DNA from: Spirochaetota bacterium
GTDB taxonomy: Bacteria; Spirochaetota; UBA4802; UB4802
Assembly: GCA_026414805.1 (NCBI GenBank)
Contig: JAOAIH010000004.1
Span: forward strand, 15,808-79,807
Direction: 5' to 3'
DNA length: 64,000 bases
In this document: positions 3,361-62,913 of the stretch, one piece after another
Layout: each line of letters opens with the position of its first letter
How positions within the stretch are numbered: the first letter of the stretch is position 1
Program-made: the position numbers and the translations under genes
The notes under the pieces: model-generated
Told to the model about the DNA's origin: nothing
Database searches by the model: none
What the model saw: the letters and a program-made list of their open reading frames with translations, nothing else

Positions 3361-4203
3361 ATGCAGCTTATTATTCTTATAATGGTGAATATTTTAATAG
3401 CATCTATATTTTATCTTATTATATCGCTTAAATTAGAGCGTTCAGCCACAGAATTCCGCTCAAAGAAGTTACGAAAAGAAATGGAAGAGCTTATCAATGA
3501 ATTTAATCATACGGCTGAACGTAATTTATCTTTGCTGGAATATAAAATTAATATCCTCCGTGAATTGCTAAAAAAAGCTGATGCATTACCAACACTTGAT
3601 ATAACCATTAATGATGATGAAAAAATAGCAGGTGCCAAAAAAACCAAAAAGAGATCAAGCCAAAAAATAGAAGATAACGATTCTGCATTGCACCCCAATA
3701 AAATGAGCATGCAATCAGTAAATTTTGAAACCCCTTATGATAGTAAAAAACAAACTGTTAGAGAATCAAATAATAATACATTATTATATCTTCAAAAAGA
3801 AGCTAACAGCTCTTTCCAGGAAAACAAATCACAACTTCCTACTGTTAAAGAACAATTAGCAGAAATAGGGAAAATTATTTTTTATAGATTGCGACAGTAT
3901 ATTGAAAATAAATCTGCTAAAAAAGCAAATAATTCTATTAATCAATATGTTGAAGATTTATCCAATACTGCTATTTTGGATTATGATGAACCTCAAGAAC
4001 AATTTCGTGGAAATTCAGATATGGCTATAAGCACTGCTTTTGATGAAAATGAATTGATGGCACTTTATCGGAATGCTGACGACAAATATTTGATGATTGC
4101 AAAATTGTATAGCCAGGGTTGTTCTCTACAGTTACTATCGAAAATTTCTGGAATTCCGGTTGGGGAGATATCGCTTATTTTGAATCTTTCAATGAAAAAA
4201 TAA
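3361..4203 (+). CDS. Hypothetical membrane-anchored protein with a C-terminal sigma-70 region-4-like helix-turn-helix
   Basis: 280 aa. N-terminal transmembrane helix (LIILIMVNILIASIFYLIISL). The C-terminus (ELMALYRNADDKYLMIAKLYSQGCSLQLLSKISGIPVGEISLILNL) resembles sigma region 4 or LuxR-type HTH. Sits between fapA and cheR. Confidence 0.55.
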   Translation: MQLIILIMVNILIASIFYLIISLKLERSATEFRSKKLRKEMEELINEFNHTAERNLSLLEYKINILRELLKKADALPTLDITINDDEKIAGAKKTKKRSSQKIEDNDSALHPNKMSMQSVNFETPYDSKKQTVRESNNNTLLYLQKEANSSFQENKSQLPTVKEQLAEIGKIIFYRLRQYIENKSAKKANNSINQYVEDLSNTAILDYDEPQEQFRGNSDMAISTAFDENELMALYRNADDKYLMIAKLYSQGCSLQLLSKISGIPVGEISLILNLSMKK

Positions 4204-8534: not shown

Positions 8535-8718
8535 TGTAGTACGATAGTTACTGAGTCATAAGCATTATAATAATAAATAATACTAATGATCAATTTTAAG
8601 ATATAATTTGTAAAAAAATATTGATATTATTTATGTTCAATGATATGTAAGTGTATTGTGGTGCAATATTGTTAAAATAAAATAATATATAAAATTAAAT
8701 AAATAAAGAGGGTACACA

Positions 8719-8949
8719 ATGGGCAAACAAACAAAAAATTTACAGGACACTTTTCTTAATGCTGCACGCAAAGATAAAGTGGAAATTACCATCTATCTTA
8801 TGAACGGCGTTCCGATCAAGGGGAAGGTTATCAGCTTTGATAGCTTTACAATTTTGGTTGAAGTTGACAAAAAGCAAAATCTTATCTATAAACATGCTAT
8901 ATCAACGATAATGCCGTCAAAGCCAGTTCAGTATAAAGATGAAGAATAA
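8719..8949 (+). CDS. hfq: RNA chaperone Hfq
   Basis: 76 aa. Sm1/Sm2 motifs ([42 protein letters not shown]...IYKHAISTI). Classic miaA-hfq order. Confidence 0.92.
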
Positions 8950-8952
8950 TAC

Positions 8953-9837
8953 ATGGGTAAAGTACAAAAAATTGTTGTTGCAGCGTTTATTATTGCTGCC
9001 CTTATTTATGTTTTTGTACGTGTAGTTGTGATTGTTGGAGATGGTGTAGTGGCAATTGTCACTGATAAAGAAGGTCAGGTATTAGGACAATTGCACAAAG
9101 GTGTTAATATAGTTCCTCAGGGGATAACTACTCACATTAAAGCACACTATATCCCACTGAATAATACATGTCATGTGGACATTACCATACCGGTTCCTCC
9201 ACTAGAAGTAATTAAAAGTGAACATTATTCTATTAAGATTCCTGTAGCTGTTACTTACAGGCTTAATCCGGGTCAATTATCACTTGATTTATACAAACTG
9301 TATTCAGATGCACAGTACCTGCCTCAACAAATTCAGCTACGATTACTTAGCAGTATTAAAGATAATATTGCCTTCCATCTTTATCCATACTACCAGTATA
9401 ATGTATTGCAAGCCAATATCAACAGGGAAATAGGGCAGGCGATAGCTCATGTTAAAGAATCTTTTATCAAAGAAGGCATACTGATACAAGATGCTACTGT
9501 GGGTGTCATCTATATGCCAGATTATGCTGTATATGCTGAGGGTAAAAAATTTTTACTTGAATTGCTGACACAGGAGAAATTGAATGCCATACAGCGTAAT
9601 GAATTGCAACATCAGCTCAAGCAAGAACAGATGCGAAATGAACAATATTTGGCCTATCTTGAAAAGATGTCACAAATTATTTCAAAAAACAAGGATATTT
9701 TGCAATATATTTATATTGACAAATTAGCGGATAATGTGAGGGTGATAGTTACTTCGGACAAAAATGTTCCATGGGATATAGCAAGTGAGAGTGGCTCAGA
9801 ATCTTTAAAGAAAGATTTTGATAATTTTAAAAAATAG
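8953..9837 (+). CDS. SPFH/band-7 (HflC/HflK-like) membrane protein, putative
   Basis: 294 aa. N-terminal transmembrane helix, then VVIVGDGVVAIVTDKEGQVLGQLHKGVNIVPQG..., which resembles the start of an SPFH domain. Position after hfq parallels hfq-hflXKC. The family assignment is only moderately supported. Confidence 0.45.
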   Translation: MGKVQKIVVAAFIIAALIYVFVRVVVIVGDGVVAIVTDKEGQVLGQLHKGVNIVPQGITTHIKAHYIPLNNTCHVDITIPVPPLEVIKSEHYSIKIPVAVTYRLNPGQLSLDLYKLYSDAQYLPQQIQLRLLSSIKDNIAFHLYPYYQYNVLQANINREIGQAIAHVKESFIKEGILIQDATVGVIYMPDYAVYAEGKKFLLELLTQEKLNAIQRNELQHQLKQEQMRNEQYLAYLEKMSQIISKNKDILQYIYIDKLADNVRVIVTSDKNVPWDIASESGSESLKKDFDNFKK

Positions 9838-58633: not shown

Positions 58634-59959
58634 TTAAAATGCAATTGATTCTCCAATGTAAATGCTTATACGGTGTGTATAGTGGTGTACTATGGGGTCA
58701 GAGCCAGAAGAAACCGTATAGAATCTAAAACCACGAATATCGCCTATCCCCAACTGATACGATACTCCAATGGTTGTCCACATGCTTTTTGCTTTTATTG
58801 TATCGTTTTGTAAGGGATTTAAATCATTGCCAAACGAAAAGCTTAATGTTGCTCCATAGTAGTCATTTTTTTCATCATTTTCGGAAGTCTGTGTTACTGT
58901 ATTTTTTTGGCTGAAGTCAGTAAAAAAGCCGGTTCTTACTATTACATCATCATGTATATATATTTCCAAACCAACTTTGCCATTTAAGACTTTTTTTGGA
59001 TAATCTGGATTTGTATAGTGCATGATCCCTTCACATGTAAATGACCATTTACCTTCACGTGTGTATCCATAACCCAGTGAGATATATGCAGGAACTATCT
59101 TAAAGCGAAAATTATCTTCTACTGTTGTACTTTCAGAACTGTTGGAAGGAAAGATGGGGCCAACCTGTTGAGTTGTCATCTTTTCTTTTCTTGATGCGTA
59201 TACTCTGTATACAGGCGAACGGTAGTATGCACCAAGATGATGATGGGGAGTCAACAAATATTGCATACCAACACCACCAAATGAAGTCATTGCAGTTAGC
59301 TCATTATCAATAATCATTGCAATTTCACTTTGATTAGTTCCACCGGGGTCAAGATATGCAGAAATATTTGCCCCACCTTTGCCTTGAAAATACCCTAATG
59401 CTGCTGTTAATCCTGCATTGAGATTATTGCTGATTTTTAAACCATATCCTGCTATGCCATAGTATGCTTTCGTGTTGATTCTATACGTAGCATTAAGATC
59501 AACATTCATGACACTACCAGTTGCTCTCCCTGCTATAGTAGCCTGAATTGCATCCTGCATTGGAACAAACAATCCGTATGCAATAACATCATTGCCTATC
59601 CAATTAACTCTGCGTGCATATGCAACGCTTGTAGGAATAACTGAAATATCAGTTTCTTTCAAGTCTAGGCTTTGATATTTGCCTGCTTGCTCTTCAATTT
59701 GCCAGTATTGTGGTGAGTTGCGTGTTAAGTAGCTATACGTATTAACCGAAAGATTTAATTTACTATCAATAATGTTGGCTAAACCTGCAGGGTTATACCA
59801 TAACGCAGCTCCGTCATTAGCTAATGCACAATATGCACCACCAAGCCCGGCTGCTCTTTCGCCAATTAAATGCTGGTAATTGTTGTAGTTTTCAAGAAAA
59901 CAGAAGCCATTGGAATATATAAAAATCACTACCAATGTAGCAGTAATTTTTTGTAACAT
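58634..59959 (-). CDS. Outer-membrane beta-barrel protein, FadL/TodX-like
   Basis: 441 aa. Signal peptide. N-terminal hatch motif AAGLGGAYCALANDGAALWYNPAGLA. C-terminal ...IGESIAF ending in Phe. Confidence 0.7.
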   Translation of the reverse strand: MLQKITATLVVIFIYSNGFCFLENYNNYQHLIGERAAGLGGAYCALANDGAALWYNPAGLANIIDSKLNLSVNTYSYLTRNSPQYWQIEEQAGKYQSLDLKETDISVIPTSVAYARRVNWIGNDVIAYGLFVPMQDAIQATIAGRATGSVMNVDLNATYRINTKAYYGIAGYGLKISNNLNAGLTAALGYFQGKGGANISAYLDPGGTNQSEIAMIIDNELTAMTSFGGVGMQYLLTPHHHLGAYYRSPVYRVYASRKEKMTTQQVGPIFPSNSSESTTVEDNFRFKIVPAYISLGYGYTREGKWSFTCEGIMHYTNPDYPKKVLNGKVGLEIYIHDDVIVRTGFFTDFSQKNTVTQTSENDEKNDYYGATLSFSFGNDLNPLQNDTIKAKSMWTTIGVSYQLGIGDIRGFRFYTVSSGSDPIVHHYTHRISIYIGESIAF

Positions 59960-60081
59960 TGCAAACCTCCAGAATATTTGGATGTATTTATTTTTTTACA
60001 ATATAATCCCAAACGGGGTATATAAAAAGAGAAAAAGTATAAAATATAAAAATATCTTGACAAAATAAGTATGAAAAAATT

Positions 60082-60095
60082 ATTATCAGAATAAT
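60082..60095. promoter_or_regulatory. Palindromic operator-like site ATTATCAGAATAAT upstream of the AbrB-like gene
   Basis: Inverted repeat with 5-bp arms. It closely resembles the 15-bp palindrome downstream at 60527-60541. Confidence 0.35.
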
Positions 60096-60101
60096 CAGTA
60101 A

Positions 60102-60386
60102 ATGCAGAAATATCAGAAAAACAAGAGTAATCATATGAATACATCAGAATGTTGCACTTCATCCACATGTTCAATTGAGGCGATAGTGACTGTTGATGAA
60201 CGTGGACAGGTAGTATTGCCGAAAGAATTGCGAGATAAATTTGGGGTCAAAGCAGGAGATAAATTTATTGTGGCATCGTTGATGAACGATGCTTCGTTGT
60301 GTTGCATCGCCTTAATTAAAGCCGATTCTTTAAATTCAGTTATAGTTGAGCAGATAGCTCCTGTAGTAAGTGGAGTGCGAAAATAA
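60102..60386 (+). CDS. AbrB/MazE-like (SpoVT_AbrB swapped-hairpin) protein with vicinal-cysteine clusters
   Basis: 94 aa (or 83 aa from the internal Met). AbrB-like core AIVTVDERGQVVLPKELRDKFGVKAGDKFIV. Cysteine clusters CCTSSTC and LCC. Confidence 0.6.
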   Translation: MQKYQKNKSNHMNTSECCTSSTCSIEAIVTVDERGQVVLPKELRDKFGVKAGDKFIVASLMNDASLCCIALIKADSLNSVIVEQIAPVVSGVRK

Positions 60387-60526
60387 TATGTGTCAAACTG
60401 TTTGGTTACCGCTCTAATACGTAAATGCGAAGAAAATAGTCTTGGATGAGATGATAAAGCATACGGTGATGAAGAATCTATTTTTAGGTTTGAGATTCTT
60501 CGCTTTGCTCAGAATGACATATGCTT

Positions 60527-60541
60527 ATTATTCAGAATAAT
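60527..60541. promoter_or_regulatory. Perfect 15-bp palindrome ATTATTCAGAATAAT, followed by a direct-repeat half-site, upstream of arsM
   Basis: Read directly from the sequence. The next 20 bp contain ATTATTATTCACAAT, a direct repeat of the half-site. Confidence 0.4.
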
Positions 60542-60664
60542 ACATGATTATTATTCACAATGGCATTGATAGCTGATTTAGTATGATATTTGCAATACAT
60601 TTGAAATGGCAAACTAAGTTTATATTTTCAAAATGTGTTATCATCATTTTTTAGGAAAAATACT

Positions 60665-61456
60665 ATGGAATCAAATGAAAAAATTAAAAAGATAGTAAAA
60701 CAAAATTATGGCAGTATAGCATTACTAAAAACTTCCTGTTGTTCAGGGAGTAGTTGCTGTACCCCAGCTGACGTAGCAACAAAAATTGGCTATAGTGAAA
60801 ATGAATTAGCTGAACTTGATTCAGCTAATTTGGGGTTGGGATGCGGCAATCCAAATGCAATAGCTACTCTTAAAGAAGGTGAGGTGGTGCTTGATCTTGG
60901 CAGTGGTGCGGGTATTGATTGTTTTCTAGCATCACGAAAAGTTGGTTCAACAGGGAAAGTTATTGGAATTGATATGACACCGGAAATGATTGCACTTGCT
61001 AAAGAGAATGCACAAAAATTAAATATTACCAATGTTGAATTTATTTTAGGTGATATAGAAGACCTGCCAGTTGAAAATGATTCGATTGATGTAATACTAT
61101 CCAATTGTGTTATAAATTTGGCTCCGGACAAAGAAAAAGTATTTAATGAAGCATACAGAGTATTAAAGAATCATGGAAGGCTTGTAGTATCAGATATAGT
61201 GCTGGAAGGTACGCTTCCTAATCAAATAAAAAATTCAATTGATGCGTATGTAAGCTGCATTGCAGGTGCAATCCAAAAAGAGGAGTATATTTCATTACTG
61301 TATAAAGCTGGATTTACTCATGTTGAAATTGTAAAAGAATATAGTTATAGCACTATATTTGAAAATGAAGAATTGTGTAGTCATAACGTATCTAATACAG
61401 ATTATGCAAAGTATAAAGATGTTGTGAAAAGTATAAGTATAATTGCATGGAAATAG
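60665..61456 (+). CDS. arsM: Arsenite S-adenosylmethionine methyltransferase ArsM
   Basis: N-terminal cysteine pairs (CCSGSSCC), SAM-methyltransferase motif VLDLGSGAGID and the conserved NCVINL cysteine. Start placed at MESNEKIKK (the track ORF begins at 60635). Confidence 0.85.
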   Translation: MESNEKIKKIVKQNYGSIALLKTSCCSGSSCCTPADVATKIGYSENELAELDSANLGLGCGNPNAIATLKEGEVVLDLGSGAGIDCFLASRKVGSTGKVIGIDMTPEMIALAKENAQKLNITNVEFILGDIEDLPVENDSIDVILSNCVINLAPDKEKVFNEAYRVLKNHGRLVVSDIVLEGTLPNQIKNSIDAYVSCIAGAIQKEEYISLLYKAGFTHVEIVKEYSYSTIFENEELCSHNVSNTDYAKYKDVVKSISIIAWK

Positions 61457-61545: not shown

Positions 61546-62913
61546 ATGAAAGAAGGATATGTAGTCCCTACTATTGAAAAAATAGCATATGGCCTTGGGG
61601 ATCTAGCAATTAATATTGCCTATACTACTATCGGCTTTTATTTTTTGTTCTTTTTGGTTAATGTTGCAGGATTACCTCCACAGTGGGCTGGAATTATTTT
61701 CTTTTTAGCCCGTGCATGGGATGCAATAACCGACCCGCTTATGGGAATGATATCTGACCGTACTGTATCCAAATATGGAAGGCGAAGGGTCTATTTTTTG
61801 TTTGGCTGCATTCCGTTTGGAATAATGTTTATGCTAATCTGGCTGGTACCTTCATTTAACCATCTTATGATGTTTGGATATTATACTGCAATAGCAATCC
61901 TGTTTAATACTGCGTTCACAGTGGTGGCTGTTCCCTATAATGCCCTGATGCCGGAGCTATCGCAAAACTATGACGAACGTACAAGTATATCCGGGTATCG
62001 TATGTCACTTTCATTTGTTGGCAATCTTGTTGCTGCTGTTGGAGTATCTGTAATTGTTGATGTTGTCTTCAAAGGCAAAGAACAGTATACTACAAGCTAT
62101 CCTGTTATGGGTGTTGTTTTTGGTATCATTATCATTATTTTAATTTTCATCACCTTTGTGGGAACAAAGGAACGTGTCAAGTCACAAGCGTTACTCCATG
62201 AAGGGCTTTTCAAGACATTTAAAGCTGTATTGAGTTTACGGGAATTCAGGATACTGCTGGGAATGTTTTTATTCAATATGATTGGGTTTGACCTTATACA
62301 AGCATTATTTATATTCTTTTTAAAAGATGTCATTTTAATTTCTGAAGATATGACATTCGTTGTAATGGGCATTCCGCTTATTATTGCGGTGATGTCAGCT
62401 CCACTGTGGATTTATGTTTCAGATAAATTAGATAAACGCAGGGCATATATAGTTGCTGCAGTGTATTTTACGCTATCGCTATTGTTATGCCTGATAGCTC
62501 CGGTAGGGAGTCTTTGGTTTGTAATAGCAATTGGTGTGCTGGCAGGAGTAGGCATTTCAGCATCACAGATTATTCCATTTTCCATGATTCCTGATGTCAT
62601 TGAATATGATGAATACAAAAACGGCGTACGTCGGGAAGGAGCTTTTTATGGCATTACTACTTTTTTGTATAAAGTGGCATCAGCGTCAGCAATTGCGGTT
62701 GCATCAGCAATACTGGGTTATTTTGGCTACATTGAAAACAGTATAGCAGCGCAGCCACAATCTGCAATTCACGCTATTCGCTATATGATGGCGTTTGCAC
62801 CGGGTATATGTTTTTTGGTTTCAGTGTATTTTGTTTCAATTCTTCCTATTACTAGGGAGGGGTTTGATGAAATAAAAAGAGCACTGGAGCAACGAAAAAC
62901 AGGTTCCATATAA
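61546..62913 (+). CDS. MFS transporter, glycoside-pentoside-hexuronide (GPH) cation-symporter family
   Basis: 455 aa, about 12 transmembrane helices. MelB/GPH-type N-terminal pattern (GLGDLAINIAYTTIGFYFLFF...). Confidence 0.75.
   Translation: MKEGYVVPTIEKIAYGLGDLAINIAYTTIGFYFLFFLVNVAGLPPQWAGIIFFLARAWDAITDPLMGMISDRTVSKYGRRRVYFLFGCIPFGIMFMLIWLVPSFNHLMMFGYYTAIAILFNTAFTVVAVPYNALMPELSQNYDERTSISGYRMSLSFVGNLVAAVGVSVIVDVVFKGKEQYTTSYPVMGVVFGIIIIILIFITFVGTKERVKSQALLHEGLFKTFKAVLSLREFRILLGMFLFNMIGFDLIQALFIFFLKDVILISEDMTFVVMGIPLIIAVMSAPLWIYVSDKLDKRRAYIVAAVYFTLSLLLCLIAPVGSLWFVIAIGVLAGVGISASQIIPFSMIPDVIEYDEYKNGVRREGAFYGITTFLYKVASASAIAVASAILGYFGYIENSIAAQPQSAIHAIRYMMAFAPGICFLVSVYFVSILPITREGFDEIKRALEQRKTGSI

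Follow-up and report, generated by a model that had tools for sequence, protein, structure and literature searches.

What controls the arsenic methylation gene arsM in a Spirochaetota bacterium in which the gene ahead of it encodes a small, cysteine-rich protein of the AbrB fold and not a repressor of the usual ArsR kind? The question is raised by a 64,000-nt stretch of contig JAOAIH010000004.1 (the window, to which all coordinates refer unless a locus is named), where an 83-aa open reading frame (ORF) at 60135..60386 on the plus strand is followed on the same strand, at 60665..61456, by arsM, encoding an As(III) S-adenosylmethionine (SAM) methyltransferase. From a comparison with related loci in other genomes, we propose that the 83-aa protein, a member of the HgcC family, is probably an autoregulated AbrB-fold repressor acting on an hgcC-arsM operon, and that occupation of its cysteines by As(III) or a different soft metal(loid) probably releases it. 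The DNA-binding and repressor part of this proposal is, judging from sequence comparison, very likely to hold; the identity of the effector is a guess based on the cysteines and the partner genes.

A preliminary description of the locus had recognized a swapped-hairpin AbrB/MazE-type protein in front of arsM, and profile searches confirm both assignments. The 83-aa protein matches Pfam PF04014 (MazE_antitoxin/AbrB) with 36.4 bits (cut-off 24.7) and TIGR01439 with 44.2 bits (cut-off 28.3), and the product of the downstream gene, which we predict to be both target and operon partner, is identified as ArsM by its match to the NCBIfam profile NF008823 (348.7 bits, cut-off 263). The cysteines of its GCGNP, SNCVINL and C-AGA motifs align to the solved ArsM structure 5evj, and CC..CC pairs are found at its N-terminus. 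The 83-aa protein also matches the equivalog profile NF040962, "HgcAB-associated protein HgcC", with 95.1 bits (cut-off 70, E 1.6e-27) over profile positions 1-69 of 70, and the identical protein in NCBI is entered as "HgcAB-associated protein [Spirochaetes bacterium]". It is a single-domain protein that scores far below cut-off against the MazE antitoxin equivalog NF050106 (19 bits vs. 65) and the MraZ profile NF001476 (20.1 bits vs. 162), and it has no Pfam or NCBIfam match to the ArsR/SmtB winged helix (HTH_5, HTH_20). The protein sequence opens with MNTSECCTSSTCSIEAIVTVDERGQVVLPKELRDKFGVKAGDKFIVASLMNDASLCCIALIK, starting at the ATG at 60135; a longer, 94-aa ORF starting at 60102 was rejected, because homologues begin at an equivalent MxxSxCC and position 60102 falls within the repeat array described below. 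At 50% clustering, the family comprises 119 clusters (E <=1e-10).

Both cysteine clusters singled out in the preliminary description, CCTSSTC and LCC, are indeed present in the 83-aa ORF: C6, C7 and C12 lie at the N-terminus, with C12 two residues ahead of strand 1, and C56 and C57 open the last strand. Residues C12, D21, R23, G24, Q25, V27, P29, R33, C56, C57 and P76 are invariant in both of our alignments (A1 and A2), and K30 is invariant in the arsM-linked alignment and at least 90% conserved in the other. The DNA-contact motif of the family reads VDERGQxVLPKELR. Alignment to AbrB in the PDB places query residues 17-44 on AbrB residues 7-34, making R33 the counterpart of AbrB R23, and by the offset of this alignment R23 and Q25 stand on either side of the AbrB R15 position; both R15 and R23 are essential for DNA binding by AbrB. 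An AlphaFold2 model of the monomer (mean predicted local distance difference test score, pLDDT, 71.5) has two helices, one at 30-36 and one at the C-terminus (63-79), with a hairpin at 44-62 between them, and its top Foldseek matches are AbrB, SpoVT and Sso7c4-like structures, with a probability of ~1 but TM-scores of only 0.4-0.5 and E-values of 0.016 or above.

To place the locus in context, one genome per GTDB species was scanned, yielding 388 relatives, and the best 80, those closest to the arsM-linked query, were fetched with 5 kb on either side (loci are cited below as L001 and so on). The same-strand gene immediately downstream is arsM-like in 45 of the 80 loci (44 by motif, plus L070 by BLAST) and hgcA in 32, a ratio that is biased and not a census, because the loci are those nearest to an arsM-linked query; hgcA is often followed by hgcB, with a C-terminal CC. 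In the remaining three loci, two end at a contig edge and one shows only an incomplete motif match. The preliminary description had suggested comparing arsM neighborhoods, and the hgcC-arsM pair does recur there; it had missed that the family already bears a name and has been put forward as a putative hgcAB regulator. The gap between hgcC and its target is mostly below 80 nt, and in L009 the hgcC stop codon overlaps the arsM start. Hosts include Spirochaetota, Nitrospirota, Chloroflexota/Dehalococcoidia, Desulfobacterota/Syntrophia, Actinomycetota, Vulcanimicrobiota, Methanocellaceae and Methanotrichaceae. In a rough neighbor-joining tree, arsM-linked and hgcA-linked members are interleaved, with the hgcA-linked L034, L049 and L041 falling within an arsM-linked Syntrophia group and the hgcA-linked L013 pairing with the arsM-linked L074; the partner therefore appears to have been exchanged several times.

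The N-terminal cysteine pattern varies with the partner gene. The clade of the window carries CCxSSxC, other arsM-linked members mostly carry CC-x(4-9)-CC, and hgcA-linked members mostly have a single CC, amounting in most cases to three or four N-terminal cysteines with arsM and two with hgcA, a difference that may reflect tuning to the ligand. All 26 diverse arsM-linked members tested match NF040962 (E <=5e-20), and the name HgcC is therefore too narrow. To ask whether hgcAB might nonetheless lie hidden in the window, we searched the six-frame translation of its 64 kb for the HgcA cap-helix motif N[VI]WC[AS][AGS]GK and the dicluster-ferredoxin motif CxxCxxCxxxCP; neither occurs in any frame, and this candidate was rejected. 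An ArsR/SmtB-like ORF was detected within 5 kb in only 3 of the 80 loci, using phmmer with two queries and thus with limited sensitivity. We conclude that the HgcC-family protein holds the usual ArsR position, and an ArsR acting alongside it was rejected as rare within the reach of that search.

The family has entered the literature from its hgcA-linked side. Zhang et al. (2023; PMC10349881) described a gene annotated as prlF, mazE or abrB directly upstream of hgcA in 14 (~39%) of the hgcAB-bearing contigs in their analysis and, among 31 cultured methylators, in 8 that are mostly Methanomicrobia, and proposed it, without experiments, as a putative hgcAB regulator; the cysteines, an operator and the arsM pairing are not mentioned in that paper. 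Beyond it, our search of the accessible literature returned no paper discussing this gene, no use of "hgcC" in this sense or of "HgcAB-associated", no link of arsM to an AbrB, MazE or PrlF gene, and, for this family, nothing that treats the cysteines as a sensor or describes the TCWGA array (see below) or the pairing with arsM. A precedent comes from P. mercurii ND132, where hgcAB is transcribed together with the gene of an ArsR-like, arsenic-responsive regulator (10.1101/2022.10.17.512643).

Upstream of the 83-aa ORF, a consensus scan identified the best promoter-like site in the region, TTGACA-18-TATTAT, with 11 of 12 consensus matches. Its -35 hexamer TTGACA lies at 60057..60062 and its -10 hexamer TATTAT at 60081..60086, both on the plus strand, and the last base of the -10 hexamer is the first base of unit 1 of a predicted operator. 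This operator, at 60084..60119, consists of four TCWGA units on a 9-nt lattice, TATCAGAAT, AATCAGTAA, ATGCAGAAA and TATCAGAAA, with unit centers at 60088 (TCAGA), 60097 (TCAGT), 60106 (GCAGA) and 60115 (TCAGA), the first of them 31 nt past the start of TTGACA. When the window was scanned with an array matrix built from other genomes, this array scored 36.6 bits, against 18.2 bits for the next best site in the 64 kb and a maximum of 21.2 bits over 20 shuffled windows.

The preliminary description had read the same region differently, as one of two near-identical palindromes bracketing the small gene, the second followed by a direct-repeat half-site. The strings it quoted are present, as is the half-site repeat, and the first of them, ATTATCAGAATAAT, which occurs once in the window at 60082-60095, corresponds to unit 1 of the array and its flanks. 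Its palindromic character, in contrast, does not exceed chance. The symmetry of the 14-mer is imperfect and its arms consist solely of A and T, and perfect inverted repeats with 3-5 nt spacers are common in this AT-rich window, with 328 having 5-nt arms (274 in shuffles) and 99 having 6-nt arms (72 in shuffles). The AT-rich arms that give the 14-mer its palindromic look are not kept in close relatives, and the palindrome model was rejected in favor of the TCWGA lattice.

The lattice itself is conserved across loci. All Spirochaetota relatives have the array: in the close relatives L001, L003, L004, L006-L010 and L084-L086, TTGACA is followed by two to six copies of ATCAGAA with a 9-nt period, and among the 73 non-spirochaete loci ATCAGA or its complement occurs within 160 nt upstream of the gene in 67, in at least two copies in 35 of these. 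Between positions -110 and -5, ATCAGA/TCTGAT is enriched 25.5-fold over the rest of these loci (~600 kb), with a maximum between -60 and -20. Distances between cores are 9 nt in the same orientation, 11 nt from ATCAG to CTGAT, 7 nt from CTGAT to ATCAG, or sums of these values, as expected if the symmetric pentamer TCWGA is placed strictly on a lattice with 9-nt steps. Of 158 exact TCWGA pentamers, 149 fall on the dominant phase of their own locus. Loci typically carry three to four units, with a consensus of A-A-T-C-A-G-A-w-w over 264 units, and the unit consensus is AATCAGA in arsM-linked and hgcA-linked loci alike. That a single lattice holds units of either orientation suits a two-fold symmetric dimer reading double-stranded DNA and argues against an RNA signal. 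For this reason, and because Rfam gave nothing above chance, its only match being a lysine riboswitch with 14.7 bits against a threshold of 30, we rejected an RNA element in leader or spacer.

The array is also tied to the promoter and to the gene. CTTGACA is found upstream of the gene in 57 of the 73 non-spirochaete bacterial loci, and the center of the first unit lies 19-20, 29-32 or 38-40 nt past the start of TTGACA, so that the array spans the promoter from its spacer through the -10 hexamer to the start site. In two archaeal loci, TTGACA is absent and the units are kept 3' of an AT-rich, TATA-like sequence. Arrays scoring at least 24 bits are found upstream of hgcC in 77 of the 80 loci, representing at least seven phyla, and in only four other places: in L031, directly before an arsM separated from hgcC by an extracytoplasmic function (ECF)-sigma-like gene; in L034, before an hgcC remnant and arsM; in L049, before a second hgcC-arsM copy; and in L077.

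Three of these loci have unusual layouts. In L031 (5249-5884, 6639-6721), the arsM beyond the ECF-sigma-like gene has its own TTGACA and a three-unit array. In L034 (8426-9123), a second promoter and array stand 3' of hgcC-hgcA-hgcB and are followed by a 10-codon remnant of hgcC (MVKEDQKKEE and a stop codon) and by arsM, an arrangement in which a single regulator would serve both mercury and arsenic methylation genes. L049, from a deltaproteobacterial metagenome-assembled genome, contains two hgcC paralogues 4.7 kb apart (3763-4041 and ~8539-9026), one before hgcA and the other, with its own TTGACA and array, before arsM; an arsR with a CVC motif and an arsD-like gene lie between the two paralogues.

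Whether the second site of the preliminary description could serve as an operator for arsM itself is a separate matter. Of the two bracketing operators proposed there, the first falls within the conserved array, whereas the second is not conserved and scores at background; the array is found upstream of hgcC only. The second string, ATTATTCAGAATAAT, occurs once in the window at 60527-60541, with ATTATTCA again at 60550, and lies in the 278-nt hgcC-arsM spacer (60387..60664), which carries a lineage-specific insertion and is probably not an HgcC operator. Its array score of 16.4 bits equals background and comes with one strong unit at 60534, of a strength reached by 57 units in the window, and the TCAGA cores at 60509 and 60532, separated by 23 nt, do not fit the 9-nt lattice. 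No array lies between hgcC and its target in the 21 other loci with long spacers.

Spacers in most relatives measure 0-135 nt (38 nt in L001), and the insertion is common only to the window and L085 (2442-2742), where a conserved left part is followed by tandem repeats of ~23 nt, three copies in the window (60509-60577) and at least five in L085 (T[AT]AGAATGACATAATGAAATGTT). In place of the TCAGAAT of the window, the L085 copies show TAAGAAT or TTAGAAT. We therefore rejected the second site as an arsM operator on the grounds of its background score, the array-free spacers of the 21 other loci and the missing TCAGA core in its L085 homologue. The 10-mer TCAGAATAAT common to both sites is most simply a coincidence within a repeat element, given that score, the off-lattice spacing, the array-free spacers elsewhere and the different L085 core; there is some residual chance that it marks a weak single-dimer site. 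The insertion could represent sites of a second regulator, a minisatellite or a mobile-element remnant. A 26-mer, GATTCTTCGCTTTGCTCAGAATGACA, occurs once in the window at 60494-60519, and near-identical strings stand upstream of hgcC promoters in the Chloroflexi loci L022 (151-171) and L062; the 26-mer resembles a piece of some small, widely distributed repeat.

Among the possible roles for the protein, that of an autoregulated, sequence-specific repressor is best supported, because the DNA-contact motif and the operator core are conserved together, the array is tied exclusively to the gene across two domains of life, its symmetric units appear in either orientation, and it overlaps the promoter. 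Under this proposal, dimers of the HgcC-family protein would sit side by side on the four pseudo-palindromic (A)TCWGA(T) units, 9 bp apart, and, with units extending from the -10 hexamer to about +25, the bound protein would block RNA polymerase. A thiophilic metal(loid) would then bind the cysteine thiolates, with CCxxxxC directly ahead of the first DNA-binding strand and the invariant CC opening the last strand; the protein would be deformed or would dissociate, and arsM would be derepressed. Vicinal cysteine pairs bind As(III) or Hg(II) in ArsD, in the ArsRs of Acidithiobacillus ferrooxidans and Corynebacterium glutamicum, and in MerT, MerA and HgcB. We infer a metal(loid) effector because methylation of soft, thiophilic metal(loid)s is what the two targets have in common, because As(III) and Hg(II) have vicinal cysteines as their classical ligands, and because the protein occupies the place of ArsR in other ars and hgcAB operons. 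With arsM as the partner in the window, As(III) or methylarsenite (MAs(III)) is the most likely inducer there.

Several points weigh against this proposal. One family serving both arsM and hgcAB does not pinpoint an effector, and the ligand could instead be Hg(II), a methylated species, an Fe-S cluster or the redox state. Our literature search found no experimental characterization of any family member. The 9-bp period of the units differs from the helical repeat of DNA, the structure model is of a monomer and of moderate confidence, and the sampling around an arsM-linked query colors the partner ratio. The 278-nt spacer also contains promoter-like sites (60514-60541, 60560-60587 and 60601-60628) and could hold an independent promoter, in which case arsM in this genome may partly escape control by HgcC.

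One alternative keeps the repressor and the operator and has the cysteines sense redox state or oxygen, through a thiol-disulfide switch or an Fe-S cluster, limiting oxygen-sensitive methylation systems to anoxic conditions. Each monomer has five cysteines, three of them invariant, the hosts all look anaerobic (Nitrospirota, Syntrophales, Dehalococcoidia, methanogens, Spirochaetota), and HgcAB is a corrinoid/Fe-S system, all of which would suit such a sensor. We nevertheless consider it unlikely: the two partner enzymes have their action on soft metal(loid)s in common and no other link between them, some modules adjoin arsR and arsD (L049), the number of N-terminal cysteines follows the partner as ligand tuning would have it, and CC pairs are typical of As and Hg sites and unusual for Fe-S ligation. 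The cysteines could also belong to what is mainly a metallochaperone, which would capture As(III) or Hg(II) and pass it on to ArsM or HgcAB in the way ArsD serves ArsA, with another factor acting on the array. ArsD has similar vicinal cysteine pairs, the coupling to the enzyme gene is tight and often translational, and the N-terminal CC pairs of ArsM accept As(III). Set against these are the array, of which hgcC is the sole constant companion across at least seven phyla and two domains, the AbrB-type DNA-contact positions among the invariant residues, and L031 and L034, where an array precedes arsM with hgcC elsewhere in the locus, as fits a trans-acting regulator. A chaperone in place of a regulator thus seems quite improbable, though the two roles are not mutually exclusive.

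Two further readings depart more widely from a metal(loid)-responsive repressor. Sensing of SAM or S-adenosylhomocysteine (SAH), metabolites common to both SAM-dependent methylation systems, draws on the ArsR-like hgcAB regulator of ND132, which responds to SAH as well as to arsenic (10.1101/2022.10.17.512643), and on a report of SAM as the methyl donor of HgcAB (PMC11588087). We regard it as very unlikely in a protein of ~80 aa made of an AbrB barrel and one helix, with no recognizable nucleotide-binding pocket, and it would leave the invariant cysteines unexplained. Finally, many members carry the label "antitoxin MazE/PrlF" in Pfam, KEGG and JGI, in keeping with an orphan type II antitoxin of the MazE/PrlF type whose toxin lies elsewhere. 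The preliminary description had itself weighed an antitoxin paired with a toxin gene, and the loci speak otherwise, as arsM or hgcA comes next in 77 of the 80 and a toxin-like gene is the same-strand downstream neighbor in none. Conserved cysteines and a cross-phylum operator are not antitoxin features, the score against the MazE equivalog is far under its cut-off, and we give this reading almost no credence.

Seen as a metal(loid)-responsive repressor, the window protein resembles the ArsR/SmtB family, including the hgcAB regulator of ND132, in being a small cysteine-bearing repressor encoded by the first gene of an operon with its operator over the promoter, and in serving the same two kinds of target, arsM or other ars genes and hgcAB. 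The likeness is functional only: ArsR/SmtB proteins are winged-helix proteins and the window protein is predicted to form a swapped-hairpin beta-barrel, and its predicted operator is a multi-unit 9-bp array where that of ArsR is an inverted repeat of the 12-2-12 type. A precedent for an AbrB-fold protein reading a short repeated motif is MraZ, which has tandem AbrB-like domains and binds direct repeats upstream of the dcw cluster with a period of about one helical turn; the window protein differs in its single domain, its 9-nt instead of 10-nt period, its motif and its cysteines. MazE/PrlF antitoxins share the N-terminal DNA-binding fold and expected autoregulation, but the window protein lacks a toxin partner and its C-terminus is a predicted conserved helix and not a toxin-wrapping tail. 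AbrB, SpoVT and Sso7c4 have the same fold, with the equivalents of AbrB R15 and R23 being conserved basic or polar residues in the HgcC family, and they lack the cysteine clusters of the window protein and have no known metal(loid) ligand. AbrB is reported to recognize loosely defined sites (PMC4022651), in contrast to the sharply defined core of the HgcC family. Closest of all are the proteins behind NF040962 and the gene of Zhang et al. (PMC10349881), which belong to the same family as the window protein and share its size, invariant cysteines and VDERGQxVLPKELR motif; the difference is in the partner, arsM here and in 45 of the 80 nearest loci, and not the hgcAB on which the name NF040962 is based.

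The genes flanking the module are shared with some relatives. A FadL/PorV-like outer-membrane protein gene on the minus strand (58634-59959) lies upstream of hgcC, which it separates from a 105-aa gene in the window and likewise in L009 and L085; it is not found there in L001 and L003. A GPH/MFS_2 transporter gene (61546-62913) lies downstream of arsM, and also follows arsM in the syntenic loci L003 and L009, and does not in L001. An AGGA stands 5' of the arsM ATG (60665), and the stretch before the start is kept in relatives.

Since the family has already been named, the window protein is not categorically new. Relative to the searchable literature, the candidate novelties are arsM as a main partner, an operator code that crosses phyla and the case for an AbrB-fold metal(loid) sensor. 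It is conceivable, at somewhat less than even chances, that HgcC proteins form a new structural class of metal(loid)-sensing repressors, combining the AbrB swapped-hairpin fold with sensing through thiolates and using one TCWGA code with a 9-bp period for arsM or hgcAB in bacteria and archaea. The present name misleads in practice, as automated annotation will label such proteins HgcAB-associated in genomes and loci that have arsM instead. The experimental system is small, comprising one 80-aa protein, one 36-bp operator and a few ligands, and what is at stake in it is the AbrB fold as a metalloregulator scaffold. Mercury biogeochemistry asks about both the regulation of hgcAB and the purpose of HgcAB, and the sole regulator tested so far is ArsR-like and from one strain; the HgcC family would add a second, unrelated family of regulators, wired to arsM at least as often as to hgcAB among the 80 loci sampled. 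If As(III) is the effector for both, the mercury methylation genes of many lineages would belong to an arsenic-responsive regulon, which would bear on the native role of HgcAB.

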